From Bacteroidota bacterium (GTDB taxonomy: Bacteria > Bacteroidota > Ignavibacteria > Kryptoniales > JAKASW01), in assembly GCA_021789975.1 (NCBI GenBank), contig JAJYIT010000020.1, positions 1,048-65,047 of the forward strand: DNA of 64,000 bases, in the 5' to 3' direction. The translations under genes and the position numbers were made by a program. This document shows positions 18,401-49,978 of the stretch, piece after piece (position 1 is the stretch's first letter; the number at the start of each line of letters is the position of its first letter). The notes under the pieces are model-generated. The model was not told where the DNA came from. It searched no databases and saw only the letters and a program-made list of their open reading frames with translations.

Positions 18401-18769
18401 ACGAGGATGTTCAGGGTCGGCGGAATAAATATCGCTGCATACGTCAACATCACGAATGTACTGAATCTGAAAGTGAACGAGATGGGGAACATGTACGCTT
18501 TTTCAAGCGAACTCACCTCATCGAATGACTATGCTCCTAACAATTCGGATGAGGCGCAGTATCTGATGTCGCTTCATCTTCCGATGTACAATTCACCCGC
18601 ATACGATCAACTCCGGCAGCAGAACCCCGGTTTGTATATCCCCGGCCACGACCATGTCGGCGACCTGAGGTCGGGCAGCAAGCCGTATATCAATGATCCG
18701 GATTATGCCAGCGTATTTCTGTACGGCCAGCCAAGAGATATTTGGTTTGGAATAAGAGTTGATTTTTGA
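15431..18769 (+). CDS. TonB-dependent outer-membrane receptor with N-terminal carboxypeptidase-regulatory-like domain (SusC-sized)
   Basis: 1112 aa. Signal peptide present. N-domain IQGTVVDAKTGEALPGVNVLVVGTNLGAVTDLNGKYFVVNVPVGTYEVKASMVGY, plug region (LTIRGGSADQ), and a long barrel ending ...IWFGIRVDF. Confidence 0.9.
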   Translation: MRSIVLPKTFQILFSFMIVISLSSVAAYSQSRSRIQGTVVDAKTGEALPGVNVLVVGTNLGAVTDLNGKYFVVNVPVGTYEVKASMVGYTPMLVKDVLVSLDRVATVDFQLQSSEIQTKEVVVVAQRNQLHREVSSTQLVSTGAQITNTAGIREINAFLAKLPGVSTTGNGFLTIRGGSADQVGTLVNGLAYDNAAVGNAETSIPLSAIEQVSVLSGGYSAEYGNFRSGLINITTKTGTENAYHATLDISADQSHMRRFGQSLYDPTNPFLAPYLNPSVAFSGTQSGVWDQYQQNQHAAFLGWDHYAAQYNTGKPLAQQASPLELYLLSSWMTMSVPDYQGLQQQIAKDPTILGNMTMAQADSLLGATDNAFQNHANHEQGSDYNLDGGFGGPVPFIGKALGGATFYVSNNTKSSNYIEPVTLDNSFTSTSLLTVKSAPSSDITVTLNGLWKREIGVSPIRPASGDAPDISGRGGFMLQDNLNYIFDNSGITGDNYNYLYDQAYFPILNQTTVMTGVTLNQLISSKTYYQFTVSRLGISDYSPTGMNRDTTQITQIGPFNLDESPYGKFALSGTHDVNGYTFPSYDTPIGMSTFRFRGKEGDLHDNSKTYQYELKFDLSSQIGDHNFVKTGVEFNMFDLQHNFWEQWNNNAYNTYEFNYHRTPSQTGVYVQDQINYEGIVANLGVRFDYYFGGGGLWPAQPFAPIFRPQTVDTSLYSYLNSGNSYIWHLWYAYNDSVPGFLQEIKNYLTVSPRIGVSFPITDRSKFYFNYGQFRSNPPYFSMYEFTYRYTKNGLYQMSNPNLEPPLTTSYELGVEYNVYSSLMMRVSGYYKDVSGQEGQVTYQTVGSSLGLNYTGYLNNQYQSIQGIEINLSKNDNSWINGWLNFNYMLTKTGNTGVQYIYDIPVTDQSNLYQANEVPTLPQPRLNADVTFRSPTHWGPQPAGLDLLGDWELTLFGEWQAGDYFTWNPLNDVHLSDNLQWPAYYRLDMKLTRMFRVGGINIAAYVNITNVLNLKVNEMGNMYAFSSELTSSNDYAPNNSDEAQYLMSLHLPMYNSPAYDQLRQQNPGLYIPGHDHVGDLRSGSKPYINDPDYASVFLYGQPRDIWFGIRVDF

Positions 18770-18792
18770 AAGCTCAATCAATGGAGATTCTC

Positions 18793-20985
18793 ATGAGATT
18801 TTTTGAATTCAGAAAACCCGAAGGCACGTCCAGAGGGATCCCCGCGATTGTATTGTTAATGCTGTTGTCTACAAGTGCACTCGCACTCGCCCAATCTCAG
18901 TCGCCCGAGCTTCAAACAACAACGATACGTCTCGGCCGCTTGTGGCTCGGCATGGCGGCAAACGGCGGGAAAATGAACTTCGATCCGCGCGGCGGTTTCT
19001 TCCCGAATGACTATGGCATTGCGGCCGACAGGTCTCAATATGCGCAGGCATTCACCGGATCAGGGATCTACCTCACCGCTACTCACTGGTTTAACCCGCT
19101 AACAGACTCAATTGAGAATGTGGCGGTGTATTCGACCGTAACTGACTCTATGCCGATCGGAAGGGTCATACAGACTTTAACCAATTATCTCAGGTACAAA
19201 TACCCGACAATTCAGATCGGTGGCGCCTCAGGAAATATTTCACTTTTCGGAACTTATAATCCTGATTACCCCGGCTTCGCGAACCACACCTACGACGAAG
19301 CGGCCGAAGTTGTCGATTCGACTATCCTTGGTGTGACGATAGATAGAAAAGTCTATGCCTGGTCGCAGAATTACAATAACGATTACGTTATCACTGATCT
19401 GGTGTTCACAAATGTTGGAGGCGATACCCTCGACAGTCTCTACATAAACATGCAGGAGACGGGTGCCAACATGTATTACTCTAACGGGAACAATCCGCAG
19501 GGGACGTTCGACCCTACCATGGTGTGGCAGCATTACTACGGCGGACGGCCCGGCGATACGATGCGTGTCTTTTATGAGTATAGTGCGGATAATCCCAAGC
19601 TTCCCGGCGATGACATGGGAGCGCCACAAGTGTCCCAGAACGGCAGGCTCCTTATGCCGAACATGAATTATTATGCGATCCTACATGCGTCTAGAGAGCC
19701 GTATACGGATTCTACACAGGATATCGATGATCCGCTTGAACCAAAAGTAACGTACATGGGTGTTGCCACTGCCATTCCATTTAACCAGGCAAGTGATCTG
19801 TATGGCAACAAAAACTTTTATGCAATCAGGGGAGCATTCTCGAACGTCTATCCGATGACCGGCGAAACCACGGGTGCATATCATGGATTCAACAATGATG
19901 AACTTGGTACAGCCGACTACACCGCTAATCCGGCAGGGCAGTACGAGGGCATCTCTTACCGGAGCTGCAGCTTTGGTCCGTATACTTTTTATCCGGGACA
20001 GAAACTTCATATCGTTTACGCGAGTGGTTTTGCCGGCATAGGTTATCGTATGGGTCAAGAGATAGGTCAGGAGTGGCTTGACGGCACTCTGAAAGATCCG
20101 CCGAATGCGTCACAAATCCCCGGGTGGAATGCCAGAACGGGCTTGTTGCCCAGCAACTTCGCATTTCCTGCCGGAGCTACAGATGAGGACATGATAAAGG
20201 ATCGCTGGATCAGTTTGGGAATTGATTCGGTAATGCTGAGCGCCTGGCGGGCAAAATGGAATTACGAACATGATTATAGCATACCACAAGCTCCCCCTCC
20301 GCCGCAAACTGTAACTATTGCGCCGACGGCGGGTGCAATTCAAATCCAGTGGTCCGACCCTGCGGCTGAACAGATGCCTGATTTCGCCGGCTATAGAATA
20401 ATGAGAAGAGTTTCGAATTTCGATACGGTCTTTTACCAGCCGATCTACAATTCTGATTCGACTGACCTGGGTGTCACTCACCTATTCAATGACTCGATTG
20501 CATACTATGGAGCACAAGTTTATTACTATGTCCAGGCAAAAGCAAGGATACCCTACAACGACCCCGCCGCCGATCCTACCACACGAGGGAAGATCATATA
20601 CAGCGGACGGGCAATGTATCCGAATTTCTATTTTGCCAGGCCCACCAATTTTGCCCAGGACGACCTCTCGAAAATCAGGATTGTACCGAATCCGTATAAC
20701 ATCAAAGACCCACTACTATATTCTGCTAGCCGCGGATTGGGTGCAACAGATGGAAGAGCAATAGTCTTTTACAATTTACCTGCTGTCTGTACCATCAAAA
20801 TATACACGGAGAATGGAGATCTAGTCCAGACTATCAATCACCCGACCCCGGGAACGAGCGGAGGATCGGAAACTTGGACGATGCTTACTTCCAGCCAGCA
20901 GGTAATTTACAGCGGTGTGTACATCGCGGTCTTCCAGACACCCGATGGAAGAGTGTCGTATCAAAAATTCCTGGTTGTGAGGTGA
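18793..20985 (+). CDS. Secreted protein of unknown function with an FN3-like domain and a divergent T9SS-CTD-like C-terminal beta-sandwich
   Basis: The track ORF 18766..20985 overlaps the TBDR stop. ATG 18793 (GGAG 6 nt upstream) gives signal peptide MRFFEFRKPEGTSRGIPAIVLLMLLSTSALALAQS with no lipobox Cys. FN3-like PPPPQTVTIAPTAGAIQIQWSD...GYRIMRR. The C-terminus IVPNPYN...CTIKIYTENGDLVQTI...SGVYIAVFQTPDGRVSYQKFLVVR parallels the CTDs elsewhere in the window. Confidence 0.75.
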   Translation: MRFFEFRKPEGTSRGIPAIVLLMLLSTSALALAQSQSPELQTTTIRLGRLWLGMAANGGKMNFDPRGGFFPNDYGIAADRSQYAQAFTGSGIYLTATHWFNPLTDSIENVAVYSTVTDSMPIGRVIQTLTNYLRYKYPTIQIGGASGNISLFGTYNPDYPGFANHTYDEAAEVVDSTILGVTIDRKVYAWSQNYNNDYVITDLVFTNVGGDTLDSLYINMQETGANMYYSNGNNPQGTFDPTMVWQHYYGGRPGDTMRVFYEYSADNPKLPGDDMGAPQVSQNGRLLMPNMNYYAILHASREPYTDSTQDIDDPLEPKVTYMGVATAIPFNQASDLYGNKNFYAIRGAFSNVYPMTGETTGAYHGFNNDELGTADYTANPAGQYEGISYRSCSFGPYTFYPGQKLHIVYASGFAGIGYRMGQEIGQEWLDGTLKDPPNASQIPGWNARTGLLPSNFAFPAGATDEDMIKDRWISLGIDSVMLSAWRAKWNYEHDYSIPQAPPPPQTVTIAPTAGAIQIQWSDPAAEQMPDFAGYRIMRRVSNFDTVFYQPIYNSDSTDLGVTHLFNDSIAYYGAQVYYYVQAKARIPYNDPAADPTTRGKIIYSGRAMYPNFYFARPTNFAQDDLSKIRIVPNPYNIKDPLLYSASRGLGATDGRAIVFYNLPAVCTIKIYTENGDLVQTINHPTPGTSGGSETWTMLTSSQQVIYSGVYIAVFQTPDGRVSYQKFLVVR

Positions 20986-20988
20986 GCG

Positions 20989-21999
20989 ATGAAGATTACT
21001 ATGATAAATAATTTGAAGAACTTCCTGCTCATTTCAATCCTATCTCTGTCCGTTTCGACAGTTCGAGCTCAAGTGACGATCAATAAGGTGGCACAGAGCA
21101 CAATGAACTTCCAGTTGGTGAGTATCTCTCCCGTGGCTAGTGGAATGGGCGAAGCATATTATGCTGTCGGTACCGGGGCAGATGCGATATTCTATAACCC
21201 GGCGGGAATGGCTGAACTGACGGGGAAAGTGAACGTGGTACTCGACTACACACAGTGGATTGCGGACATAAATTACTATGCCGGTGCGGTGGCCTGGAAC
21301 ATCGGGAATTACGGCTCGGTCGGCTTCAGCGTCCTGTCGGTCAACTATGGGACTATCAACGGCACCAGTCTCAATCCACTTGGCGGCTATATTGACAATG
21401 GTCCGGTGAAAAATGTAGGTGCGTATTCAGTAGGGTTGACTTACGCAAAACATATAAATACTCAATTCGAAGTAGGAGGCAACGCCCGCTTGGTTGGTCA
21501 GGACCTTGGCGATAATACGTTTGTTGACGGGACGACCGCGAAGAACGACGCAACGAAACTTGCATTCGACCTCGGGGTGAAGTACATCACCCTATTCAAC
21601 GACTTCAGATTCGGAATGGCGATTAGAAACTTCTCGTCGGATATCACCCGCGAAGTCATCGCCGAACAACTCCCCCTTACTTTTACAATGGGTGCGGCAA
21701 TCGACTTAATGGACTTTGTTAATAAGAGTCATTCAAAGGGAACGGCATTCACACTTGCGGTAGATTTTCTTCATTCCAATAGTTATTCAGAACGGTTCAA
21801 CATGGGGGTGGAGTACAAATTCCTCGGCATGCTTGCCTTGAGGGGCGGATACCAGACGAACAGAAGTCTGCAGTCGTGGTCGGCTGGCATTGGATTGAAC
21901 ACGATTGTTGCGGGGAATGAATTGCAGGTGAATTATTCGTACTCCAAGATGCAGATCTTTAGCGGTGTAAACAGAATTTCCATAGCTATGTCTTTCTGA
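20989..21999 (+). CDS. PorV/PorQ-family-like outer-membrane beta-barrel protein
   Basis: 336 aa. Signal peptide ...SVSTVRAQ. The N-terminal motif FQLVSISPVASGMGEAYYAVGTGADAIFYNPAGMAEL resembles the PorV/PorQ signature (recalled from memory). Alternating beta-strand pattern, with terminal ...ISIAMSF. Confidence 0.6.
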   Translation: MKITMINNLKNFLLISILSLSVSTVRAQVTINKVAQSTMNFQLVSISPVASGMGEAYYAVGTGADAIFYNPAGMAELTGKVNVVLDYTQWIADINYYAGAVAWNIGNYGSVGFSVLSVNYGTINGTSLNPLGGYIDNGPVKNVGAYSVGLTYAKHINTQFEVGGNARLVGQDLGDNTFVDGTTAKNDATKLAFDLGVKYITLFNDFRFGMAIRNFSSDITREVIAEQLPLTFTMGAAIDLMDFVNKSHSKGTAFTLAVDFLHSNSYSERFNMGVEYKFLGMLALRGGYQTNRSLQSWSAGIGLNTIVAGNELQVNYSYSKMQIFSGVNRISIAMSF

Positions 22000-28802: not shown

Positions 28803-31800
28803 ATGAAGAAAAGAACGACTGCCTTGGGGCTACTAGTTCTAATTACTTTTGCATCTGTTCCAGGAACCAGCTTGCTGTTCGCACAGACTACCGGCGAATA
28901 TCGATCTAATTCACCCGTCGCAACAGGTCCCTGGAACTGGAGCAACCCGGCCGCATGGCAAACATGGAATGGAACGGCGTGGGTGGCTGCGACTGTGGCT
29001 CCCACCGGCAATGAACCGAAGATAACGATCCAATCCACGGACTCGATCTACGCAGGCGCGGTGACAATCACCGATACTCTGGTGAATCAGGGAGAATTGG
29101 TTGCGGACACTAACTCTGCGGGCCAGTCGGTACTGGCTTTCGGCAGCGGCGGAGTGTACCAGCATGCAGAGAATGGCGGCTCTATTCCCTCAGCAACATG
29201 GAACACGGGATCGACCTGCTTGGTTACCGGCGCTACATCAAGTGCACCATCAAATGCGAATCAGAACTTCTACAATTTCGCATGGGATTGTGCGGGTCAA
29301 ACGACTGGTCTCAACGTAGCCTGGAACGGAAACACGATAGGTGGAAACCTTGTTGTCTCTGTTCCTTCGAGTCAACAGTTTCGTATGTCGAACAACAATG
29401 CCAACGGCGGGAATCCGATAACTATCAAGATACTCGGTAATATCGTTGTGAATAGTGGGAAACTCACCCCGACCGGGTCAGGCAGCGCTCAAACCTACAC
29501 GATCATCGACAGCGGAAATATCTATGTCAATTCTGGTGTATTGTACGTCAGCGGAGGAAGCGGCGGAGTTGTAACATGGTACTGCTACGGAGATACGTTC
29601 TCCACGGCAGACGGCACATCGTTGCAAACCTCCAACAGCTCCTCAAAGTGGATTTTTGCTCGCAGCGTTTCGCACGCCTTTACCACAACCGGCACCGTGA
29701 AATACACGGGCGGAATGACGTTTGAAGTTGACACAAACGCAACGCTTGACCTGGGTACAAGTGTCATTGCAGGAAGCTCGGCGAAGTTTGTGCTGGACTC
29801 AGCGGCAAATCTGGTTACTGCTCAGGCCGGCGGCCTCAACGGTAATCTCACAAATGCCGGAGGGAACACTTTCAGCCCTTACGCCAATTATGTCTTCAAC
29901 GGTACCGCGGCACAGGTGACCGGTGCTCTACTGCCGGCGGAAGTGAATGGCCTTACTGTCAACAACCCAGCTGGCCTGACATTGAGTGGATCCGTAAGTG
30001 TCGCTGATACTCTAAATCTTGTAAGCGGTCAACTGATCCTCGACACCAACCATGTCATGGCGACCACTCTCGTCGGCGGTTCATCCGCGAATTATCTAGT
30101 CACAGACAGCACCGGAAGCTATTTAGGAATCCCAAACGTCGGAACGACGAAGGTTCTTTTCCCGGTCGGAACGACTGCGGAAGGATATTCTCCGGTGTGG
30201 GTAACTAATACCGGAACGGCAGATACTTTCTCAGTTTCTGCCATGGCTGATTCTTCAGTCCCTGCAGGTGTCGGACGAGTTAACGTAAAGTGGAATGTCT
30301 TGGAGAGCCACCCTGGCGACGCAGTCTCTACACTGGCGTTCGGCTGGATGGCAGCAGCGGAGAATCCTGCATTCGCATCCGATCCTTCCGCATACGCGCA
30401 GATTTACAGCTTGAGTCCATACTACAAGCAAGTTGGTTTGGGCGCCTACAGCAGCCAATTTACAACTGAACCTTACACGCTTTCACGAATTGGAATTGCG
30501 ACGCTGGGAGAGTTCGGCGTCGGAAAATTTGTCCTGAACGTGACTCCGCAGATTGGAGACTTCGGCTCGGTTCAGAGCGGCCCGTGGAGTTCGCTCTCTG
30601 TTTGGAAACAATGGGACGGTAAAGGCTGGAACACGACACCTGTTGCAGTTCCTGACGGCGAAGTGAACGTGTTCATTAACAGAGGCGACACGGTTACGGT
30701 TGACGCGGTTGACTCAGTAGGCGGCAGTCTTCTCGTCGACGGCTATTTGAAAGATGTTGCGGGCCTCAAAGCAAGTGGCGCCAATGTGGTGTTTGATAGC
30801 GCCAGTGTTTACGAGCTCGCTCATAATGGCGGCGGCGTGGCAGGAATACCGACCGCGACGTGGAAAACCGGCTCCACTTGTCTGATTACCGGTGAGGCGG
30901 GGAAAATTTCCTCCACGACCGGTTTCAACGCAAACCAGGATTTTTATAATCTTGTGATTGATGCTGCTTTCTCTTCGAATAAAGACCTGGCGATGTATGA
31001 TAACACCATCAACGGCAATCTGGCTGTGAACAACACAGGAAGCGCCCGTGTTTATCTGACAAGTCCGGGCGCGGGGACGCCTAACACGATCACTATCAAG
31101 GGTAGCATTCTTTTGACAGCCGGCCAGTTCGCATCGAATGGATCGGGGAGTCCCGCAGACATAACCGTCAATAGCTACGGCAACATCACGGCAACCGGCG
31201 GCAACTTCAGCTTGTCAAGAGGATCCGGCCCAATTGTACTCTGGAATTTCTACGCGGATTCACTGACTCTATCGAATGCCACAACACAGGTATCCGGAAC
31301 GAACGATGTGCTGGTCTTTAAGAAACCCTTAGGCCCGTCCGGCAAGCCTCAATCCGGGTACCAGTATCTAACTTTCCAGAACGTTTCATACAGCGGCGGC
31401 GGACTTCCGATTGAAGTCGATACCGGTGCAACACTAGTTATGGACACGAGTTCTATCGGAGGAAGCGGAAACTTTACCGCCGATTCCGGCTCGACAATCA
31501 TGACGGGGAACTTCCTCGGTTTGAATGGAAGCATTACAACTTCAGGAACGGTAACTTTGAATCCTGGAGCCTCGTTTGTTTTCAACGGCACCGTTCATCA
31601 GATAACGGGCTCAATGCTTCCGGGCGCCGTAAAGAATCTCACGGTAGATAATTCAAAGGACGTATCTCTATCAAAGAGCACAGATGTCACCGGAACGTTG
31701 ACCATGACTAACGGCAACCTCGTTCTCGATACAAATAACGTCGTTGCTGCAGCGGTGTCCGGAGGTTCTCCGACCAGCTATGTCGCAACTGATTCCACCG

Positions 31801-32552
31801 GCAACTTGACGGTACCAAGTGTCGGCGCCACTCAGGTTGTCTTCCCTGTTGGTACAGATTATGGATACGCCCCTGCGTGGGTAACTCTCCCTACCGGCTC
31901 CGATCGCATTTCCGTTTCTGTGAAGCCGGACAGCACGGCGACTACGAACGGAATGGGCCGAGTAAACGTGAGATGGCAAATCCAGAAGACTAATTATACG
32001 ATCCCGTTCACGCTTCAACTCGGCTGGATGGCGTCGGAGGAGGATTCTGTGTTTGCTGAAAACCGTCCCGCCTATTCACAGATATACCTTGTTTCGAGCG
32101 ATACTGTTGTTGAGCAGGGTACCGGGAATTATACAACCCAGTCTACGACTCAACCCTACACAGTTTCTCGAAGCGGAATAACTGCTGAGTTTGGTACCGG
32201 ACCACAGGGAGTTCCTGCATTCGGTACTAATTTTGTCGTTGGTCATTTTACCCTCACCGGGATTGACGGGCCAGCCCAAGTTCCGGTCGAGTTCAAGCTG
32301 TATCAGAACTATCCGAATCCGTTTAACCCGACGACCAGGATACAGTTTACTGTCGCGAAAACCGGGATGGCCTCGCTGGAAGTCTACAACGTCCTGGGCC
32401 AACGCGTAGCGACTCTGTTCTCCGGAAATGCTTTACCCGGTCACTTGTATGCGGTTGACTTCAACGGGAGTGCGTACGCTTCAGGAGTCTACTTCAGCGT
32501 TCTGCAGAGCAGCAGCGAGCGCCAGGTAAAGAAGATCGTTTTAATGAAGTAG
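28803..32552 (+). CDS. Large secreted beta-helix-like protein of unknown function, internally duplicated, with T9SS C-terminal sorting domain
   Basis: 1249 aa. RBS GAAGGAGG. Signal peptide MKKRTTALGLLVLITFASVPGTSLLFAQ. Two homologous halves of about 580 aa. C-terminus LYQNYPNPFNPTTRIQF...VYNVLGQRVATLF...SGVYFSV...KKIVLMK is a T9SS type-A CTD pattern. Confidence 0.85.
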   Translation: MKKRTTALGLLVLITFASVPGTSLLFAQTTGEYRSNSPVATGPWNWSNPAAWQTWNGTAWVAATVAPTGNEPKITIQSTDSIYAGAVTITDTLVNQGELVADTNSAGQSVLAFGSGGVYQHAENGGSIPSATWNTGSTCLVTGATSSAPSNANQNFYNFAWDCAGQTTGLNVAWNGNTIGGNLVVSVPSSQQFRMSNNNANGGNPITIKILGNIVVNSGKLTPTGSGSAQTYTIIDSGNIYVNSGVLYVSGGSGGVVTWYCYGDTFSTADGTSLQTSNSSSKWIFARSVSHAFTTTGTVKYTGGMTFEVDTNATLDLGTSVIAGSSAKFVLDSAANLVTAQAGGLNGNLTNAGGNTFSPYANYVFNGTAAQVTGALLPAEVNGLTVNNPAGLTLSGSVSVADTLNLVSGQLILDTNHVMATTLVGGSSANYLVTDSTGSYLGIPNVGTTKVLFPVGTTAEGYSPVWVTNTGTADTFSVSAMADSSVPAGVGRVNVKWNVLESHPGDAVSTLAFGWMAAAENPAFASDPSAYAQIYSLSPYYKQVGLGAYSSQFTTEPYTLSRIGIATLGEFGVGKFVLNVTPQIGDFGSVQSGPWSSLSVWKQWDGKGWNTTPVAVPDGEVNVFINRGDTVTVDAVDSVGGSLLVDGYLKDVAGLKASGANVVFDSASVYELAHNGGGVAGIPTATWKTGSTCLITGEAGKISSTTGFNANQDFYNLVIDAAFSSNKDLAMYDNTINGNLAVNNTGSARVYLTSPGAGTPNTITIKGSILLTAGQFASNGSGSPADITVNSYGNITATGGNFSLSRGSGPIVLWNFYADSLTLSNATTQVSGTNDVLVFKKPLGPSGKPQSGYQYLTFQNVSYSGGGLPIEVDTGATLVMDTSSIGGSGNFTADSGSTIMTGNFLGLNGSITTSGTVTLNPGASFVFNGTVHQITGSMLPGAVKNLTVDNSKDVSLSKSTDVTGTLTMTNGNLVLDTNNVVAAAVSGGSPTSYVATDSTGNLTVPSVGATQVVFPVGTDYGYAPAWVTLPTGSDRISVSVKPDSTATTNGMGRVNVRWQIQKTNYTIPFTLQLGWMASEEDSVFAENRPAYSQIYLVSSDTVVEQGTGNYTTQSTTQPYTVSRSGITAEFGTGPQGVPAFGTNFVVGHFTLTGIDGPAQVPVEFKLYQNYPNPFNPTTRIQFTVAKTGMASLEVYNVLGQRVATLFSGNALPGHLYAVDFNGSAYASGVYFSVLQSSSERQVKKIVLMK
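28890..32295 (+). repeat. Intragenic tandem duplication (2 x ~580 aa) within the 1249-aa protein
   Basis: Half A (about 28890..30549) and half B (about 30552..32295) align end to end. Examples: TGPWNWSNPAAWQTWNGTAW vs SGPWSSLSVWKQWDGKGW; SIPSATWNTGSTCLVTG vs GIPTATWKTGSTCLITG; FEVDTNATLDLGTSVI vs IEVDTGATLVMDTSSI; RVNVKWNV vs RVNVRWQI. Confidence 0.85.
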
Positions 32553-32574
32553 CATGTAAGCATCAATAACGATT

Positions 32575-32598
32575 GCGGCTCACCTTCGGGTGAGTCGC
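32575..32598 (+). other. Stable UUCG-tetraloop hairpin between cargo genes
   Basis: GCGGCTCACC-TTCG-GGTGAGTCGC (one mismatch), with no T-run after it. Likely an intercistronic RNA-stability or processing element rather than a terminator. Confidence 0.4.
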
Positions 32599-32625
32599 AA
32601 CTTGAAAGGAGGTACGTAGAGGATC

Positions 32626-34518
32626 ATGGTACAAACAAAATCTTTCGGCAGGCTTCTGTCCTCGGTTTCATCTGGGCGGGGTTCGTCAATCGCTGCGCTG
32701 AGTCTCGCGATTTGTTTCTTCCTCGGATACAATTCTGCGAGGGCACAGTACACAACTAATGGGACTGGTGGTGGATCATGGACTTCGGGTTCCACATGGC
32801 AGGGAGGCCAGGTGCCTCCGGCAGGAAGCGACGTGACGATAGCCTCAAATGACTCGGTCTGGACCAGCCTTTCTGCCCAAACCGGCTGCGGCGCCCTCGA
32901 CATCCAGTCCGGTGCTAAGCTCAATGTGCTCGGTCAAGGAATTGCAATGACGGGTGCATTCAGTGTAGGAGCAGGTGCAGTTTACATCAACAACACCGAC
33001 TCCGCTAAAGCATGGCCTGCAGGTGCGACAGGATACACAATTGACCCGACAAGCACTTTTATCCTCGGTCCTAGCGGCAATCCTACTTTGGGTTGGAGCC
33101 AGTCGGACTCCACTTTTGGAAATGTAATTATCGAGCCGAACAGCAATTCGAGTGGGCCGGCCTGCGGTGCCAATCTGACAATCCAGGGAAATCTGACGGT
33201 TGCCGTTGGGCAAGGCAATTACTTTAGAGGGATTGCTGTTAGCACAGCCGCCAGTGCCGGAGTTACCAGCTTCATTCACCACATCCTGGGGAACGTTACG
33301 GTTATCAGCGGCAACTGGGCTGCGGTCGACATGGGCGTTAGTGCTACTGTTCCACTGTACTGTACTTGGAACGTTGATGGGAATGTCACTGTCGGAGATC
33401 CCTCCACTGCGGCGCAAATAGCAAGGTTCTCTCCCATAACAAGCGAAGACGACATCGGTGCCCGCGGGACTTTCAACATAAAGGGCAATCTATCTTTCAT
33501 TAATGGTGGTCGCCTTGCTGCCGGGAGTAACTCAGGAAGCAACCAAAGTGCATCTCAGTATGCAACGGTGAATATTCAAGGCAATCTTTCCTTCGACAAT
33601 ACCGCCAAGTTTGGCGTGAACTCGATGGGTAATTTCGATATCAATTTCACAGGCACTAAGCCGCAGACTGTTACGCTCGGGACCAACGTCTCCTTCTCAC
33701 ATTCAGGTCCCCCGCAGTGTTCCGTATGGGACACAATTGCCGCGGGTGCCAACGTGACAATTACCGGCGGGCATTATTGGAGATCGGAGCAGACGCTGGC
33801 GCCTAACGGCACTGGAGCTTTTGTCGTCAACGGCACACTTAACATTGACGCACAAGACACAATCAAAGGAAGCCAGAAGTTCATTGTGAGTCCGGGCGGC
33901 ACGCTCGGCATCGGAGCCACTGACGGCATCACGGCTTCGACCGATGCAAACCCTTACACCGGCAACATTCAGGTCGACTCTGCCCGTGTCTTCAGCAGCG
34001 AAGCCAACTATGTGTACGACGGTACAAGCGCTCAGAAGACTGGAAGCGGGTTGCCGACGACCGTTAACGATCTGACGATTGAGGATACAGCCGGCGTAAT
34101 GCTAACTCAGGCAACAACGATAAACGGTACGCTCGCTTTGAAAGCCGGAGTGTTCGATAATACAATACCTTTCGCACTTGGGCCCGGCGGAAAAATTTCC
34201 TATGAAGGCGGCTCTTTACTGACTGGTGTGAAGAGAAAGGATGTGCTTGTGCCTCAACAATTTTACATGGACCAAAACTATCCGAACCCATTCAACCCGT
34301 CAACAACGATTGAATTCGGAGTGCCGAGCAGATCATTCGTGACGGTGAAGGTGTACAACGTCCTTGGGCAGAAAGTTGCCACATTGTTTAGCGGCGAGCA
34401 GAATGCCGGCGTATACACAGTAGACTTCAATGGAGCTAATTTCAGTTCCGGCGTCTATTTCTATCGAATCCAGGCAGGAAACTGGAGCAAGACGAAGCGT
34501 ATGGTAATGGTAAAATAA
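32626..34518 (+). CDS. Secreted beta-helix-like protein of unknown function with T9SS C-terminal sorting domain
   Basis: 630 aa. Signal-like IAALSLAICFFLGYNSARAQ. N-terminal TNGTGGGSWTSGSTWQGGQVPPAGSDVTIA motif. G/N/T-rich repeats. CTD DQNYPNPFNPSTTIEF...VYNVLGQKVATLF...SGVYFYRIQAGNWSKTKRMVMVK. Confidence 0.8.
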   Translation: MVQTKSFGRLLSSVSSGRGSSIAALSLAICFFLGYNSARAQYTTNGTGGGSWTSGSTWQGGQVPPAGSDVTIASNDSVWTSLSAQTGCGALDIQSGAKLNVLGQGIAMTGAFSVGAGAVYINNTDSAKAWPAGATGYTIDPTSTFILGPSGNPTLGWSQSDSTFGNVIIEPNSNSSGPACGANLTIQGNLTVAVGQGNYFRGIAVSTAASAGVTSFIHHILGNVTVISGNWAAVDMGVSATVPLYCTWNVDGNVTVGDPSTAAQIARFSPITSEDDIGARGTFNIKGNLSFINGGRLAAGSNSGSNQSASQYATVNIQGNLSFDNTAKFGVNSMGNFDINFTGTKPQTVTLGTNVSFSHSGPPQCSVWDTIAAGANVTITGGHYWRSEQTLAPNGTGAFVVNGTLNIDAQDTIKGSQKFIVSPGGTLGIGATDGITASTDANPYTGNIQVDSARVFSSEANYVYDGTSAQKTGSGLPTTVNDLTIEDTAGVMLTQATTINGTLALKAGVFDNTIPFALGPGGKISYEGGSLLTGVKRKDVLVPQQFYMDQNYPNPFNPSTTIEFGVPSRSFVTVKVYNVLGQKVATLFSGEQNAGVYTVDFNGANFSSGVYFYRIQAGNWSKTKRMVMVK

Positions 34519-34526
34519 CTTTATAC

Positions 34527-34556
34527 GGTAGGCGACGGTAACTAACCTCGCCTACC
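34527..34556 (+). other. Intercistronic hairpin
   Basis: GGTAGGCGA (34527..34535) pairs with TCGCCTACC (34548..34556), with a 12-nt loop and no T-run. Confidence 0.4.
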
Positions 34557-34608
34557 ATCTCTCTGCGGAGCCGCGTCCCAGTTTCTCCAACAATCGGAAA
34601 ATTGAAAT

Positions 34609-37095
34609 ATGTTAAAATACGTCGGTTTTTTTTTACTGCTTAGTTTGACTCCAGTTTACCTATTTGCACAGACCGCGGGATTTGTCGGCGACGGTGTTAC
34701 AGATAATACTACGGCAATTCAGGCGGCGATCGACAGTTGCAGCAATGCGGGCGGTGGTGTAGTTGAATTTGCAAAGGGCATTTTTCTCACCGGTCCTATA
34801 ACACTTGAGAGCAATGTCACCCTGAGGATTGACAGCTCGGCCACGCTACTTGGGAGTTCAAATATGAAGGCGTACTACCCGGTGGGTTACGACACGTCTT
34901 ATCCGGTGCCGAGCAAGCTTCAGCCTCTGATCACATCTAACAGAGCCGACAGTTTGACGATCACAGGAGGCGGGACGATTGATGGCAATGGCCAGGAATG
35001 GTGGACCGCGTATGAGAACGGGACTATTTCAACCAGGCCCAGGCTGATTCAGCTAAGTCATTCTCAATATATTTCAATAGAGAATGTAACCCTGCAAAAC
35101 TCACCGCAATTCCATGTATCACTTCAGTATTGTTGGTATGTGAACATTCGCAACGTGAATATCTTCGCACCACCCAGCTCTCCAAACACCGACGGCATCG
35201 ATCCTGCAACGAGTCATTTTGTTTACATAACGGGTTGCCACATCAATACCGGCGACGACAACATTGCAATAAAGTCCGGTAATTATGATTCGTCTAATCC
35301 GAATGCAGGATCGTCGAACATTTTCATTTGGAACAACACCCTTATACACGGCCACGGGATCTCGATCGGAAGCGAGACAAATGGCGGTGTGGACAGCATG
35401 TTTGTCTGGGACTGTACATTCGACAGCACAGACAACGGTCTGAGAATAAAGTCTTATCGTGGAGCAGGCGGAAACGTCAGGCACGTGAGTTATCGCAACA
35501 TTACGATGAATCACGTCAAGCACCCGATTTGGTTCACTGAATACTATCCGAATATTCCTTCGCAATCGGATCCAGCGCAGAAGATTACTGCTGTGACTCC
35601 ATACTTCCACGACGTTACAATAGACAGCCTTGTGTCAGACTCAGGCGGTACTTCATATCCCGGATCTGCCATCGTAGGATTGCCTGAAACGCCGATGAGA
35701 GATATCGTTCTCAAGAATGTCAACATCGGGGGTAAGTACGGCGTTGAAGTGAGGAATGCGAGTGTTTATACCAGCAACACTTCCGTAAGTGTCACAAGTG
35801 GCTCGCAGATAATATATGAAATCAGGGGATCGTTCAGTCCCGCGATTTTTACGAACGGTACGGGTGGAGGGAACTGGGATTCGCCGTCGACCTGGGAAGG
35901 CGGTGCGGTTCCGGACTCCACGAAATACGCAGTCATCCTATGCGGAGACTCGGTAACCGTTGGAGCCGGGCAGTCGACGAAATGCGGCAGCCTTGCCATA
36001 TTTGCAGACGCGGTATTGAATGACGCGGCTCCGCTATCGGTTCCCGATACACTGACAATCGGTGACACGGCTTCCTACTACAATGCCTGCCCGGGCAGCC
36101 CTTCCTTCCCGCGTGCATCGGTCTACGGCATCAGCAATTTGAGCAATTACATTCACACCGCGAGCGCCGATAGCATTCTCGGAGGGCCGGGATATGATTC
36201 AACTTTCGGCAACCTGACTATCGAGCAGGATACCACCGTAGCCAGTTCAAACCTCATAGTCAACGGAAATCTAAATCTTGTCGGTGACAAGCTTTTTATC
36301 GGGCACAATAATATCATTGCGGCAGATGTCAACGGAGGATCCTCCACCAGCTATGTTGTCACCGATAGCGGCGGCGCCCTAAGAATTCCCGGTGTCGGGG
36401 CAACGCAAACGATTTTCCCGGTGGGTACTTCACTTGGATATTCTCCGGTTTGGATCGCGAGTTCGACTTCGCCGGATACTTTCACAGTTTCAGCGGAGAC
36501 GGACACCGATTTGCTTGTCGAAAACAGCGGACGCGTGAATACAAAATGGAATATTTCGAAATCTACGCCGGGAAGCGTCAGTTGCACCTTGAAGTTCGGA
36601 TGGGTGGCTGAAGCTGAAGACGCTGGATTTGCCGCCGACCGCTCCGGCGATGCAAAGATTTTCAATATTAACGATTCCATTGCCACCGCGGAGGCCGGAA
36701 CGGGAAGCTACACCACTCAACTTACATCTGAGCCGTACACAGTCTCGCGCGGAGGGATAACCGCACTCGGTTCTTTCGGTGTCGGGAATTTCACTGTAAC
36801 ATCGGTCGAAGGTCATGGTGCCACGAACCCGACGAGCTTCGGGCTCTACCAGAATTATCCGAACCCGTTCAACCCGTCCACGGTTATCGATTATCAGGTC
36901 GCCTCTTCAGCCCGGGTCACCCTGCGCGTCTTCGATGTCCTTGGCAGGGAAGTAGAGTCACTCGTTGATCAGCGAGAGACTCCGGGTAACTATTCCGTCA
37001 GTTTCGATGGAAGCCGTCTTCCGTCCGGTGTCTATTTTTACAGACTCACTGCGGGAAGCTTCTCCGCCGTGAGGAAGATGATAATTATAAGGTAG
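34609..37095 (+). CDS. GH28 polygalacturonase fused to an uncharacterised module and a T9SS C-terminal sorting domain
   Basis: 828 aa. Signal peptide present. GH28 catalytic motifs NTDGIDP, GDDNIAIKSG, GHGISIGSE, LRIKSYRGAGG. These are followed by TNGTGGGNWDSPSTWEGGAVP, the ~174-aa shared module (36271..36792), and the CTD LYQNYPNPFNPSTVIDY...VFDVLGREVESL...SGVYFYRLTAGSFSAVRKMIIIR. Confidence 0.9.
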   Translation: MLKYVGFFLLLSLTPVYLFAQTAGFVGDGVTDNTTAIQAAIDSCSNAGGGVVEFAKGIFLTGPITLESNVTLRIDSSATLLGSSNMKAYYPVGYDTSYPVPSKLQPLITSNRADSLTITGGGTIDGNGQEWWTAYENGTISTRPRLIQLSHSQYISIENVTLQNSPQFHVSLQYCWYVNIRNVNIFAPPSSPNTDGIDPATSHFVYITGCHINTGDDNIAIKSGNYDSSNPNAGSSNIFIWNNTLIHGHGISIGSETNGGVDSMFVWDCTFDSTDNGLRIKSYRGAGGNVRHVSYRNITMNHVKHPIWFTEYYPNIPSQSDPAQKITAVTPYFHDVTIDSLVSDSGGTSYPGSAIVGLPETPMRDIVLKNVNIGGKYGVEVRNASVYTSNTSVSVTSGSQIIYEIRGSFSPAIFTNGTGGGNWDSPSTWEGGAVPDSTKYAVILCGDSVTVGAGQSTKCGSLAIFADAVLNDAAPLSVPDTLTIGDTASYYNACPGSPSFPRASVYGISNLSNYIHTASADSILGGPGYDSTFGNLTIEQDTTVASSNLIVNGNLNLVGDKLFIGHNNIIAADVNGGSSTSYVVTDSGGALRIPGVGATQTIFPVGTSLGYSPVWIASSTSPDTFTVSAETDTDLLVENSGRVNTKWNISKSTPGSVSCTLKFGWVAEAEDAGFAADRSGDAKIFNINDSIATAEAGTGSYTTQLTSEPYTVSRGGITALGSFGVGNFTVTSVEGHGATNPTSFGLYQNYPNPFNPSTVIDYQVASSARVTLRVFDVLGREVESLVDQRETPGNYSVSFDGSRLPSGVYFYRLTAGSFSAVRKMIIIR

Positions 37096-38029: not shown

Positions 38030-41000
38030 ATGAGTGAGAAATCTACGATACTATTTGCGGGTCCAATAGCGCTTCTGCTTGCCGTCTCGGTGCCTGCATT
38101 TGCTCAGACGTCCGCGACGGCTAACTGGCCGCTGACGAGCGCGGCGTCAACCATGACCGTATCAGGAAACATATCAGCATCGCCGGAAGTGATTTTAGGA
38201 TTGACCCCCGCGTACGAGATTCCGGGAGCCGGGACAAGCAACGCCGTCCAGAAACTTAAACCCGATGCGACAACAAGCGGCAGCGGAGGCACAGGTTCGT
38301 GGCCAGCGGACTCTGCCGCTAATGGCGGAAGGTACGTGCAGTTCAGTATTGGGCCGCAAACCAACTTCAATTTGACAGTTGATTCTATTTCAGTGTTGAT
38401 CGGAGCCAAAGGTGTTCACAACCTCAATGCTTCCGTCTATTATTCCACGAGCAGTACCTTCATCGATTCGGTAAAGATCATGGAGCGGGACAGCCTCATA
38501 TCCAACGCCGTCTCGGACACGACGCTCGACAGTCTCAAAATTCCGGTGACCAACGGTCAAACGCTTTACATCAGAATATACCCGTGGGCGAAAGAAGGAA
38601 TAGCAAGCAACACGAAGTATTTGTATGTTGGCAACCTCACGATATATGGTTCCGCTCAGCCGCTGCCGGTTCCGACTGCCGCGGTCTGGCCTGATTCAAC
38701 GGACCTGAATCCCGTTACTACCGGCCTGATTGTCGCGAAGCAGCAAAGCTTCAGCAGTACTTTGTACAGCTACGGTTTCGGGCTTCTCGGTACGACACAA
38801 GGAGACGAGATATTGACGACTCCTGCAAAGAGCACATGGCCCGCGGAAAGTGCACCCGACTCAGCTTACTATGTCCAGTATGCCGCAACGGTTGCTCCGG
38901 GTGGAACACTCTTTGTCGATTCGCTATCACTTCAAATGGGCGCGAAGTATTCTAAGAACCTGAGGGCAGCAGTCTACTACTCCAATGACTCTACATTCTC
39001 AACAAGAACGGTGCTCGTTCAGGATACTTCGCTATCCGAGAGTCAGTTCACAACTTTCGGAAGCATCATACCAACCGATACCGTAGGCACAGGACAGGTA
39101 TTTTATTTGAGAGTCTACCCCTATGATACAAAAGCGGAAGGATATGCGAAGATTGTGTTCCTGGCGAACGTCGTCATCGCAGGTTATACCACGGGAGTCA
39201 GCGCTTCTTTGCCGAGCATTACCACCACAGTCCCTTCTTACATCTCGACAACCTTCGCATACAGCGGTGGTCTTATATCATCAGATGGAGGCGGACTCGT
39301 GACCGGAAGAGGGGTATGCTGGAGCGTTCAACAGACTCCGACAATTGCAGACAGCACGACACAAGATGGTACAGGTACCGGTCCATTTACGAGTAACATT
39401 ACTAATCTCACGCCTGGCATCACTTATTATGTCGCGGCGTATGCGACTAACATTGCCGGAACTGCTTATGGTGTGGTGGACAGTTTTACGACACTCTCTT
39501 CAGTTGTGCCTCCCTCTGTAACGACCGCTGGAGTCACGCAGGTTCTTGCGAAGACTGCACAGGGTGGGGGCAGCGTTACTTCATGGGGAGGCGACTCAGT
39601 GAAAGTACGAGGCGTGTGCTACAGCGTCCAGTCTTCACCGACAGTTGCCGATAGTGTGACTGTCGATGGAAGCGGGTTAGGCACTTTCGTAAGCGGCCTT
39701 GCTAACCTGACGCCTGCTACGACTTATTATGTCCGCGCGTATGCGACAAACAGCGCTGGGACCGGTTACGGGTCGGTAGATACTTTAACTACTCAACCGA
39801 CGGCGCCTACTGTTATCAAAGTTGTCGCTCAGGATGGCAGCGGTGATTACAAAACTATCCAGGCGGCTTTCGATGCCGTGCCGGATTATTATACCGGCGA
39901 ATGGATCATCTACGTCAAGAACGGTAGTTACTATGAAAAAGATACTCTGGCAGCTTCTAAGACCAATGTTGTCCTCGAAGGCGAGAGCCGCGATAGTACA
40001 ATACTGACTTATGACGATTACTCAGGGAGGGTAGTTGGCAATACAACTATCGGGACGTCCAGCTCATTCACACTCGATGTTGCAGCCAGCGACTTCACAG
40101 CCGAGAACATTACCATCCAGAATACGTCACAGGCAGCTCAGGCTGTAGCCGTGATGAACAACGGAGATCGTCAGGTCTTCTATCACTGCAATATCCTCGG
40201 TTATCAGGATACTTACTACAACTGGGGAGGAAGCGGCGTCGGCCGAATTTATAATAAGGATTGTCTGATCCAGGGGTCGGTAGACTTCATGTTCGGAAGA
40301 GACATAGTTGTAACCGACAGCTGCATCATTCATGAGATCCGCAATGGTGGTACGCTGACTGCCGCAAACACAAACGCGACGACCAACTTTGGGTACGTTT
40401 TCCTTAACGACTCGATCCTGGTTGACTCTGTCGGGTTTGACGGGAATCCGATCACTTCGTTTTATCTTGGGAGACCGTGGCAGGCTGCGCCGAGAGTAGC
40501 TTTCATACATTGCTACGAACCGGCAGCTCTCAATACTGCCGGCTGGCTTGCATGGAATGTCACTCCTGCCCTCTACGCCGAGTATAATTGCTATGGACCA
40601 GGTTCGGACACTACCGGACGGGTTAGCTTCTCGACCCAGTTGGATTCTGCCGAGGCCGCGAATTACACACTCGCAAATATCTTTTCAAAGACTTCCGATC
40701 CCGGACTGGCTTATGACTGGATGCCTGTTATACCTCCTTATCTGATGCCGACAGGAATAAAGGAAAAGGATCCGCTGCCGCAAAATTTCGAGCTCTATCA
40801 AAATTATCCTAATCCTTTCAACCCGACCACGACTATTGAGTACTCCATACCGAGAAATCTTAAGGTGACTGTTGAAATCTATGATGTCCTGGGTCAGCGC
40901 GTGGCAACATTGTCCAATCAATATGAATCCGCAGGATATCACTCGGTCGTTTTCAACGCCGATAAGCTGAGCAGCGGAGTGTATTTCTACCAGGTGAGAG

Positions 41001-41044
41001 CTGGCAACAACGTTGCGGTAAAAAAGCTAATGCTAATCAAGTAG
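38030..41044 (+). CDS. Multidomain secreted pectinesterase: 2 x ~190-aa unknown domain + 2 x ~95-aa FN3-like domain + CE8 catalytic domain + T9SS CTD
   Basis: 1004 aa. RBS GAAGGAGG. CE8 motifs (from about 39800): VVAQDGSGDYKTIQAAF, AQAVAVMNNGDR, GYQDTYY, GSVDFMFG, LGRPWQ. CTD LYQNYPNPFNPTTTIEY...IYDVLGQRVATL...SGVYFYQVRAGNNVAVKKLMLIK. Confidence 0.9.
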   Translation: MSEKSTILFAGPIALLLAVSVPAFAQTSATANWPLTSAASTMTVSGNISASPEVILGLTPAYEIPGAGTSNAVQKLKPDATTSGSGGTGSWPADSAANGGRYVQFSIGPQTNFNLTVDSISVLIGAKGVHNLNASVYYSTSSTFIDSVKIMERDSLISNAVSDTTLDSLKIPVTNGQTLYIRIYPWAKEGIASNTKYLYVGNLTIYGSAQPLPVPTAAVWPDSTDLNPVTTGLIVAKQQSFSSTLYSYGFGLLGTTQGDEILTTPAKSTWPAESAPDSAYYVQYAATVAPGGTLFVDSLSLQMGAKYSKNLRAAVYYSNDSTFSTRTVLVQDTSLSESQFTTFGSIIPTDTVGTGQVFYLRVYPYDTKAEGYAKIVFLANVVIAGYTTGVSASLPSITTTVPSYISTTFAYSGGLISSDGGGLVTGRGVCWSVQQTPTIADSTTQDGTGTGPFTSNITNLTPGITYYVAAYATNIAGTAYGVVDSFTTLSSVVPPSVTTAGVTQVLAKTAQGGGSVTSWGGDSVKVRGVCYSVQSSPTVADSVTVDGSGLGTFVSGLANLTPATTYYVRAYATNSAGTGYGSVDTLTTQPTAPTVIKVVAQDGSGDYKTIQAAFDAVPDYYTGEWIIYVKNGSYYEKDTLAASKTNVVLEGESRDSTILTYDDYSGRVVGNTTIGTSSSFTLDVAASDFTAENITIQNTSQAAQAVAVMNNGDRQVFYHCNILGYQDTYYNWGGSGVGRIYNKDCLIQGSVDFMFGRDIVVTDSCIIHEIRNGGTLTAANTNATTNFGYVFLNDSILVDSVGFDGNPITSFYLGRPWQAAPRVAFIHCYEPAALNTAGWLAWNVTPALYAEYNCYGPGSDTTGRVSFSTQLDSAEAANYTLANIFSKTSDPGLAYDWMPVIPPYLMPTGIKEKDPLPQNFELYQNYPNPFNPTTTIEYSIPRNLKVTVEIYDVLGQRVATLSNQYESAGYHSVVFNADKLSSGVYFYQVRAGNNVAVKKLMLIK

Positions 41045-48416: not shown

Positions 48417-49954
48417 TTACTTCAGGAGCATGAGCTTCTTAACCGCTGTGTAGCTTCCCGCGGTCATCTTGTAGAAATAGACTCCGGTGGCAAATCGCCA
48501 ACCATCAAAGCTTACCTCATGATAGCCTGCGGACTCTTCTCCATCCACAAGCGTTGCAACTTCGCGCCCGAGAATATCATAGACTTTGATCGTGACACGG
48601 GAGTCCTTTGGAAGGTGGTAGCGAATCGCCGTCGTCGGGTTGAATGGGTTCGGATAATTCTGATAGAGCGCACAGGAAGATGGTACACCCTTTTTTCAAC
48701 CACTCCCGTTCCTATAGAATACATCTTTATCTTCAAAGTGTCATTCTCAACAAGAGCAATCGTGGGATAGCCTTCGTATGTAGTGAGAGCAACCGACGAG
48801 ATCGAGGAGGTGCTGTCCTCTTCAATAGGTCCATTTAAGTATGTACAATTCTTGCCATCCCACTCGGCAACCCATAGCCTTGGGTTGAGATTTGAATCGA
48901 CAAAGGACATGTAGAGAACCGAATCCAAAGTAGTCGCAGAAATACCGGAAAACTTCCCACTCGTGACGAAACACAACACAAGTTTCCACAACGATCCGTC
49001 CCATTCTGCAACACAGAGCGTGTCTGATTCACCTTCTGTCCAAATGGCAGTCGTTATTCCTGCCCGTAGTGCAACCTGTTCCGGGTGGGGAGAACCCGAA
49101 GAAGATGCAAGTCGGAAACCGTTGCTGCCATTGTGCTGATTGGCGCCATAGTAGAAGTAGCAGGAAACACCAGAGGAGTCATATCCCTTCTGCGCGAAAA
49201 GCCAACCGTTACAGTAAGATAGTACGACCCAACCGTTCTCGTCACCGGTGAATGCCAAACCGGGTCCAATGGGCCAATGTATGTTAGGCATCCAATACCC
49301 CGGATCTGTGACCTTCGGTCCGGAATCCCAAAATGGACTATCCACAAAATACGACGCATAGCCGGCCGGCCCACTAGCCATACCATACATTTCATAACGG
49401 CGGTTCTGCGCAATAGCTACACGAGTTCCCCACTGACCATAGAACCCTCCCATCCCGATCAGCTCCTGCGCTTGCGACGAACCCAGAGTTCCCACCATGT
49501 ACTCAGCCGTTGCCGGATTGAAGCTTGTGATTGAGCCTGCAGCAAAGAGACTATCCTTGAGTGCAATACTGGTACCATTGCAATCGGTGAAGCCGGGAAG
49601 TGAGGACCAGCCACCTCCGGATAAATTCTTAATTGCGCCTGATGGATTAGGCAAGCTTGCATTCCGCCATTGATAAAAAACAACCAAGTTGCTTTCATCT
49701 CCGGCGATTGAACATCCATACACTGGAACAGATGCAGCGGATGGAAGATTAATCCACGTCTCGGTCGATGGTTTCATTAGCCTCCGTATGTCGCTGCTTT
49801 TGATGATCCTACAAGAATCCGGCATAGTAAGATTCGTCCGACTTGCCGAGCTGCAAACAATCTGGCCCTTGGCGGTCGCGGTCCAAAACACGAACATTAC
49901 GGTAGAGATCAAGAGAAGTGCGGCTTGGATTAAATCTCTTCGCTTCATTTTCAT
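48417..49954 (-). pseudogene. Secreted W/G-rich protein of unknown function whose T9SS C-terminal sorting domain is out of frame (1-nt homopolymer frameshift)
   Basis: 480-aa ORF 48512..49954 with signal peptide MKMKRRDLIQAALLLISTVMFVFWTATAKGQ. A complete CTD is encoded just downstream in another frame: ALYQNYPNPFNPTTAIRYHLPKDSRVTIKVYDILGREVATLVDGEESAGYHEVSFDGWRFATGVYFYKMTAGSYTAVKKLMLLK, with its stop at 48417..48419. One extra A in the A6 run (T6 on the + strand, 48691..48696) joins the two frames. Confidence 0.8.
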
Positions 49955-49978
49955 GACTCACCTCGTATTCTTCAATAT

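Follow-up and report, generated by a model that had tools for sequence, protein, structure and literature searches.

We describe a family of ~174-residue domains found in surface-directed proteins of Bacteroidota, three copies of which lie in a 64,000-nucleotide stretch of contig JAJYIT010000020.1 from an Ignavibacteria-lineage Bacteroidota bacterium (assembly GCA_021789975.1; herein the window, meaning the whole stretch at its full length). The domain (herein the module) is carried by proteins that mostly end in a type IX secretion system (T9SS) C-terminal sorting domain (CTD); in the window it occurs twice in an enzyme-free protein (ORF1; ORF, open reading frame) and once behind the catalytic domain of a glycoside hydrolase family 28 (GH28) polygalacturonase (ORF3). 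The module family is real, widespread and undescribed, and it is of a familiar kind, namely an accessory module without catalytic function in multimodular T9SS cargo. We favor, with a probability of roughly 0.45, the reading that the module is a generic structural pedestal, a putative spacer or display domain that would stand next to the membrane in the mature surface protein. Environmental Bacteroidota rely centrally on multimodular, T9SS-anchored glycoside hydrolases and surface proteins to break down polysaccharides, and much of the non-catalytic sequence in these proteins has no annotation; with ~2,000 representatives that lack a Pfam or NCBIfam model, definition of the family would annotate much sequence that is currently termed hypothetical.

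Three Copies of the Module in Two T9SS Cargo Proteins

The three copies were first noticed in a first-pass annotation of the window, which listed an ordered set of shared motifs and placed every copy directly before the CTD. The three segments translate in frame (174, 184 and 174 residues for copies 1, 2 and 3) and are 47–50% identical in pairs, with 59 invariant columns in an alignment over ~174 residues. A six-frame scan of the 64-kb window with two hidden Markov models (HMMs) of the module matched at 30012-30530, 31698-32249 and 36271-36792 only (i-E 1e-79 to 3e-82), which bears out the number and location of the copies. The motif list also proved broadly right, agreeing with a family-wide consensus (LxLxxGkLxLGxNxLT, YvvTxGxGxL, FPvGTxxxYxPvxIxNxGtxDxFxVxV, VxxxWxIxE, GGsNxtLxFxW, ExxxFxxxR, PYT and GItxFxxFxVG) save for the first motif, from which copy 3 departs (LNLVGDKLFIGHNNI), and the end of copy 2, which terminates in FVVGHF.

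ORF1 is a tandem duplication of a ~560-residue unit (units a and b, 40% identical over 557 residues by BLASTP, E 4e-103), and the C-terminus of the GH28 protein aligns with the second half of ORF1 (BLASTP E 2e-73). The proposed position directly before the CTD holds for copies 2 and 3, which end 20 and 21 residues short of the CTDs of ORF1 and ORF3, but not for copy 1, which lies in the middle of ORF1 because that protein is a tandem duplication. Both proteins score above the cut-offs of the Por_Secre_tail model (32.9 bits for ORF1 and 43.1 bits for ORF3, Pfam cut-off 27) and of TIGR04183 (35.1 and 47.0 bits, cut-off 23), and are T9SS type A cargo. The fusion to GH28 is likewise genuine: the catalytic domain of ORF3 is matched by Pfam Glyco_hydro_28, and its best solved relative is the polygalacturonase 1bhe (table 1). 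No catalytic domain was recognized in ORF1 with Pfam or NCBIfam.

A Predicted Autonomous Domain without a Detected Solved Relative

The module regions of the window proteins have no Pfam or NCBIfam match. When 46 diverse modules were scanned singly against Pfam at E ≤ 1, only scattered single-member matches were returned, the best of which (CARDB, E 0.0036, in 1 of the 46) is at chance level, and no family matched the module at its gathering score, including CBM_4_9, CBM6, F5_F8_type_C, fn3, PKD, BACON, Cleaved_Adhesin and CARDB. Sequence searches of the PDB with module profiles built from 3 and from 46 sequences found nothing; a profile of 49 full-length homologues recovered, at E ≤ 0.001, CTD structures only, along with a few weak, nonsignificant matches, among them one to pertactin (a beta-helix; E 0.4) in the region preceding the module (herein the head).

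Structure prediction with AlphaFold2 on copy 3 and 46 diverse homologues gave a confident model (predicted local distance difference test [pLDDT] 94.9, predicted template modeling [pTM] score 0.91) with ~14 strands and, at residues 118–127, two short helices; we used this run, an alignment of 7 sequences having given a poor one (pLDDT 53). On this model, the module is an autonomous, mostly beta, ~174-residue non-catalytic domain, and the first-pass annotation was right to treat it as discrete. Foldseek returned no match in the PDB at E ≤ 1e-3, the best being a HormR-GAIN structure of BAI2 (8oek; E 0.18, template modeling [TM] score 0.35), and the best match in BFVD was an unnamed protein (E 0.014, TM 0.49). 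Taking as the mark of a structural relative either a PDB sequence-profile match or a Foldseek match at E ≤ 1e-3 or TM > 0.5, the module has none, and the predicted fold is one without a solved relative detectable by Foldseek. The first-pass annotation could match the module to no named family, and this is borne out by the negative results from Pfam, from NCBIfam, from sequence profiles against the PDB and from Foldseek searches of both the PDB and BFVD. A diverged or duplicated CTD was rejected as its origin (hhalign of the module profile against a CTD alignment, probability 0.1%), as was a tandem of two Ig-like halves (hhalign of residues 1–88 against 89–174, probability 0.4%). The literature on T9SS and glycoside hydrolases that we searched yielded no description of the module, and a search on G8 domains and T9SS found nothing.

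Comparison with known beta-sandwich domains is instructive at two points. Gingipain RgpB of Porphyromonas gingivalis and similar T9SS cargo carry an Ig-like domain of the immunoglobulin superfamily (IgSF) between the catalytic domain and the CTD; like the module, this is a non-catalytic domain of beta-sandwich type just N-terminal to a type A CTD, and it becomes membrane-proximal once the CTD is removed. The module is, however, about twice as large (~174 residues, with ~14 predicted strands and two short helices), has no Ig, FN3 or PKD-type Pfam match past threshold, follows a beta-helix-like head in all cases and also occurs internally or as repeats. The second comparison is with the GAIN domain of adhesion G protein-coupled receptors, whose subdomain B is a beta-sandwich of ~13 strands with two short helices, and it follows from the Foldseek ranking: the top PDB match is the BAI2 structure, two CD97 entries stand lower in the list (8ikj and 9mqr_A, although chain A of 9mqr may instead be a Fab), and the strand and helix counts are similar. 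On these grounds the module might be a GAIN-like autoproteolytic beta-sandwich that cleaves or releases its passenger. The structural scores are nevertheless nonsignificant (E 0.18, probability 0.35, TM 0.35–0.44), none of the 46 modules has a Pfam GAIN or GPS match at E ≤ 1, and neither a conserved His-Leu-Thr/Ser type motif nor conserved cysteines precede the last strand. GAIN domain identity was rejected on this Pfam, motif and Foldseek evidence, and we regard autoproteolysis of this kind as highly improbable.

Family Size and the Head–Module Cassette

An exhaustive profile search covering 1.84 billion cluster representatives recovered 1944 representatives of the module at E ≤ 1e-3, with 636 reaching E ≤ 1e-10 and 66 reaching E ≤ 1e-30; this overturned the view of a rare family that word-indexed searches had suggested with only 5–6 metagenomic fragments. 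The members with a named source belong to Saprospiraceae, to Chitinophagaceae, to unclassified Bacteroidota and to the cultured Parasediminibacterium sp. JCM 36343, and their annotations go no further than "T9SS type A sorting domain-containing," "putative Ig domain-containing" or "hypothetical." The proposed tie to T9SS cargo extends to the family as a whole, Por_Secre_tail being present in 43 of 49 full-length homologues. Most of these 49 proteins have no recognizable enzyme domain; the enzyme partners found among them are GH10 (three proteins), GH28, GH43 with an F5/8 type C domain, a GH30-type beta-sandwich and a Pel9A-like beta-helix (similar to polysaccharide lyase family 9, PL9), and the non-enzyme partners are an NHL propeller, a Shr-like HID and a purple acid phosphatase N domain. 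Such diverse partners, together with the mixed genomic contexts described below, accord with a generic module that is not linked to a substrate.

Position relative to the CTD was assessed in 119 representatives with a complete last module, in 90 of which a small four-sequence CTD HMM detected the sorting domain. The gap between the last module and the CTD is 0–49 residues in 52 of the 90 (less than 25 residues in 49) and 100–149 residues in 34, such that the last module lies within ~125 residues of the CTD in 83. In about one-third of the family (P0080–P0156; for example, residues 682–795 of P0082), the last module is separated from the CTD by an extra region of ~100 residues that has no assigned family, with a C-terminal offset of ~190 residues in this subgroup compared with ~100 otherwise. 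There are also giant proteins in which two to six copies of the module lie distant from the C-terminus.

A beta-helix-like head precedes the module in all cases examined, and the module is never found alone. Heads are of two types, a short one of ~170 residues (in ORF3, in the neighboring ORF2, in the GH28 protein P0034 and in the PL9-like protein P0044) and a long one of ~400–470 residues (in units a and b of ORF1, in the GH10 proteins P0033 and P0050 and in the GH43 protein P0023), and both types recur across different enzymes. In P0010 from Parasediminibacterium, a ~345-residue unit of head and module is repeated six times. Since the pairing with a head is constant and the pair is repeated as a unit, the evolutionary and structural unit is therefore a head–module cassette, of which the module of the first-pass annotation is the C-terminal half.

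The head may be akin to G8 domain and beta-helix proteins (PF10162), as it begins with a GxW...W...P...D..V.I motif and gives weak G8 matches; however, the module itself has no similarity to G8, and no window protein contains an individually passing G8 stretch. ORF2 scores 30.1 bits over the whole protein (cut-off 22.9) with no single stretch passing, ORF1 scores 16.7 bits, below the cut-off, and ORF3 has no match; among the 49 homologues, 3 have G8 matches at E ≤ 1e-4. The N-terminus of ORF2 is 36% identical over 149 residues to the head of the GH28 protein and scores 155 bits against the head HMM, and the module HMM scan of the window found no module in ORF2. The head of ORF3 shares 50% identity with that of its GH28 homologue P0034 and 46% with that of the PL9-like P0044, and the short heads of GH28 and PL9-like proteins do cluster together. 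The long heads of ORF1 are 30–36% identical to GH10 and GH43 heads over ~400 residues and 37% identical to each other; with the ORF1 heads as near to those of GH10 and GH43 proteins as to one another, the head was rejected as a tracker of substrate specificity.

Pectin Loci and the Question of Substrate

All three copies in the window lie in a pectin/hexuronate locus, and family matches of the neighboring genes bear out the setting that the first-pass annotation had described. The locus encodes two carbohydrate esterase family 8 (CE8) pectinesterases (one with a CTD), three GH28 proteins, a GH88/105-type hydrolase, a GH43 protein, UxaC and UxaE, as well as a LacI-type regulator, GDSL and BD-FAE esterases, a major facilitator superfamily transporter and a TonB-dependent receptor. 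A 2-keto-3-deoxygluconate (KDG) kinase and a 2-keto-3-deoxy-6-phosphogluconate (KDPG) aldolase are presumably also present, as read directly from the ORF translations without a family search. A syntenic locus (L001), 98% identical, is found in the metagenome-assembled genome "Bacteroidetes bacterium YP1.bin85," the only match of a genome scan with a single protein. In four other genomes or metagenomes (L002, L003, L007 and L008), a pectin locus has an enzyme-free cassette protein, 37–46% identical to ORF1, immediately behind a CE8 gene, such that five pectin loci hold an enzyme-free cassette protein beside CE8 (ORF1, P0007, P0009, P0039 and P0024). P0007 and P0009 are ORF1 orthologues at the equivalent position in other pectin loci, and behind the ORF1-like gene there usually come genes for a CTD protein resembling ORF2 and for a CE8-CTD or PL9 protein. 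ORF1-like proteins keep their place after CE8, so that a conserved role in such loci falls to the protein as a whole; what link to pectin remains holds for the whole enzyme-free protein and not for the module. The ~400-residue heads of the ORF1-like proteins match no catalytic family and could be unrecognized pectin-binding or pectin-active beta-helices.

The first-pass annotation had suggested that the module binds pectin or rhamnogalacturonan or else serves in display at the cell surface. For the former, one may cite that the window copies are all encoded in a pectin locus, with one of the three attached to a GH28 enzyme, that the closest enzyme-free relatives are likewise in pectin loci and that pectin-linked modules are 46–62% identical among themselves compared with 30–46% to xylanase-linked ones. 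This gap is slight, however, and host phylogeny explains it just as easily. Against the copy in ORF3, modules on GH10, GH43 and GH30-type proteins show 39–46% identity and those of pectin-linked proteins 46–54%. Close relatives thus reside on GH10 xylanases, on a GH43 protein and on a GH30-type protein, and one of the GH10 fusions (P0033) lies within a xylan locus (GH10, CBM4_9, GH8, GH115 and GH43). More distant modules are found on an NHL propeller and on many enzyme-free proteins, some of them outside polysaccharide loci, and a Chitinophagaceae member (P0094) lies outside any polysaccharide locus, so that the range of the family is far wider than pectin loci. Because relatives occur on xylanases, in a xylan locus and in non-polysaccharide contexts, pectin-specific binding by the module is, as judged from sequence comparison, not supported, and we consider a dedicated pectin- or rhamnogalacturonan-binding function improbable. 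The display half of the suggestion is compatible with all of the data.

A Proposed Membrane-Proximal Pedestal and Its Alternatives

We hypothesize that Bacteroidota place a cassette of a G8-like beta-helix head and the module in type A T9SS cargo as a means of display. The carriers, which have signal-peptide-like N-termini, would be exported by Sec and would then pass the outer membrane through the T9SS by virtue of the CTD, for which the matches are observed. By analogy with P. gingivalis, in which CTD processing and attachment to anionic lipopolysaccharide (LPS) have been described (PMC11205867), PorU would remove the CTD and the new C-terminus would be linked to anionic LPS. The cut would fall ~20 residues beyond the module or, in another subgroup, beyond one extra ~100-residue domain, which would make the terminal module the folded domain nearest the outer membrane in the mature surface protein. 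There it may cap the head and hold both the head and an N-terminally fused enzyme (GH28 here, and GH10, GH43, GH30-type or PL9-like elsewhere) clear of the LPS; any glycan recognition by the cassette would be generic and unlinked to the enzyme carried. The most conserved positions of the module are glycine, proline and aromatic or aliphatic residues (G52, P50, P59, F49, Y57, W93, W111 and F120), and in the predicted structure W93 and W111 appear in register with hydrophobic strand residues, as expected of core positions. If the module is a pedestal, it would offer a natural scaffold for T9SS-based display of enzymes on the cell surface.

Several observations nevertheless sit uneasily with a pedestal. 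Copies that are internal, among them copy 1 and those in the giant proteins, do not lie next to the membrane. A role as spacer alone fails to account for the enzyme-free cassettes that are kept beside CE8 in five pectin loci, and this conservation suggests that the cassette itself binds or acts on something. Polar positions are conserved as well (N64, D69, E97, E116, R124 and T31) and could form a ligand or Ca2+ site, and T9SS enzymes commonly have carbohydrate-binding modules (CBMs) directly before the CTD (as with CBM4_9 in L004). Given the conserved enzyme-free cassettes and the conserved polar residues, two alternatives therefore stay serious. The one we rank foremost, while still considering it unlikely, is that the module founds a new CBM family of broad or plant-cell-wall-general specificity that targets enzymes and enzyme-free surface proteins to polysaccharide. 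Known CBMs such as CBM4_9 and CBM32 (F5/8 type C) are, like the module, beta-rich accessory domains on GH10, GH28, GH43 and PL9-type enzymes, often near the C-terminus; the partners of the module (GH10, GH28, GH43, GH30-type and PL9-like proteins), the retention of enzyme-free carriers in pectin loci without a SusD gene, the conserved polar residues and the lack of any known family that claims the ~174-residue domain all accord with this reading. The module differs from them, however, in having no sequence or fold match, by profile or by Foldseek, to any CBM with a Pfam model or solved structure, and in its occurrence in enzyme-free proteins and with non-carbohydrate partners (the NHL propeller, the Shr-like HID and the purple acid phosphatase N domain) or, in some members, in non-polysaccharide loci. 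Moreover, its conserved aromatic residues appear to belong to the core rather than to the surface, and it is never found without a head.

The other serious alternative, which we also deem unlikely, is that head and module are inseparable and bind or catalyze as one unit (for instance, an adhesin or polysaccharide-active domain of beta-helix type joined to a C-terminal beta-sandwich), in which case ORF1-like proteins would be unrecognized surface proteins that act on or capture pectin. The strict co-occurrence of head and module, the repetition of the pair as a unit, the weak G8 and sub-significant pertactin (E 0.4) matches of the head and the conserved spot of ORF1-like proteins beside CE8 in five pectin loci are what one would expect of such a unit. 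Yet the module alone is predicted to fold confidently, ORF2 has a head without a module and no catalytic family was detected; nor would the unit be pectin-specific, since the long head type is shared by GH10, GH43 and ORF1 proteins (30–36% identical). A bolder form of these ideas, which we view as rather unlikely, would make the cassette a new class of surface glycan-capturing device in the SusD-less polysaccharide loci of Ignavibacteria-like Bacteroidota, with the module as founder of a new CBM family and its fold as a new carbohydrate-binding architecture; enzyme-free cassette proteins such as ORF1 would then be T9SS-anchored glycan binders that feed the adjacent TonB-dependent receptor, possibly organized via a PorV-family paralogue that the locus itself encodes. 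Were the cassette to bind glycans, it would constitute a new CBM or surface-glycan-binding family and could explain how SusD-less pectin and xylan loci capture their substrates. A generic pedestal is the reading that we prefer over these, at the probability given above.

Features of the Window

The coordinates of the cassette proteins and their parts are given in table 1.

Table 1. Cassette-Bearing and Adjacent T9SS Cargo Genes of the Window (Positions Counted from the First Letter of the Window)
Feature	Position	Strand	Description
ORF1	28803..32552	+	1249 aa; signal-peptide-like N-terminus, two tandem ~560-aa cassettes (long head and module), type A CTD
Cassette a, long head, beta-helix-like	28917..30011	+	~ORF1 aa 39-403; begins with a GxW...W motif
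Module copy 1	30012..30533	+	ORF1 aa 404-577; mid-protein, no adjoining CTD
Cassette b, long head	30561..31697	+	~ORF1 aa 587-965; weak Pfam G8 match at aa 612-649
Module copy 2	31698..32249	+	ORF1 aa 966-1149; 10-aa insertion preceding the last strand
ORF1 T9SS type A CTD	32310..32540	+	aa 1170-1246; PF18962 E 8e-08, TIGR04183 E 1e-08
ORF2	32626..34518	+	630 aa; short-type G8-like head, extended beta-helix-like region, CTD at aa 552-627
ORF3	34609..37095	+	828 aa; signal-peptide-like N-terminus followed by GH28, short head, module and CTD
GH28 polygalacturonase catalytic domain	34762..35760	+	ORF3 aa 52-384; PF00295 E 1.7e-57; PDB 1bhe E 1.8e-36
ORF3 short G8-like head	35761..36270	+	aa 385-554; ~170 aa
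Module copy 3	36271..36792	+	ORF3 aa 555-728; sequence used for the AlphaFold2 model
ORF3 T9SS type A CTD	36856..37086	+	aa 750-826; PF18962 E 5e-11, TIGR04183 E 2e-12

Several further genes of the window are of note. At 15431..21999, no SusD gene comes after the TonB-dependent receptor, whose N-terminus is SusC-like, and no SusD was found among the scanned window ORFs of at least 180 residues. The receptor is followed by a 739-residue protein without a family and with a faintly CTD-like C-terminus (E 0.005). A PorV/PorQ-family paralogue lies at 20989..21999 (NF033709, 157 bits, cut-off 90), and a PorV-family barrel within a polysaccharide locus might tether CTD cargo close to the transporter. 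The CE8 pectinesterase with a CTD (38030..41044, 1004 residues) has an N-terminal extension of ~590 residues with an internal repeat and FN3-like stretches, in which residues 497–589 weakly match the N-terminus of an NCBIfam arabinanase model; this extension differs from the module. Just past the pectin locus, on the minus strand at 48512..50644, are two adjacent ORFs of 480 and 221 residues for which Pfam gave no family at E ≤ 0.01. A gene at 312..4826, by the left edge of the window and upstream of the sugar-utilization genes, encodes a 1504-residue hybrid sensor kinase with ~8 PAS domains together with HisKA, HATPase and receiver domains.

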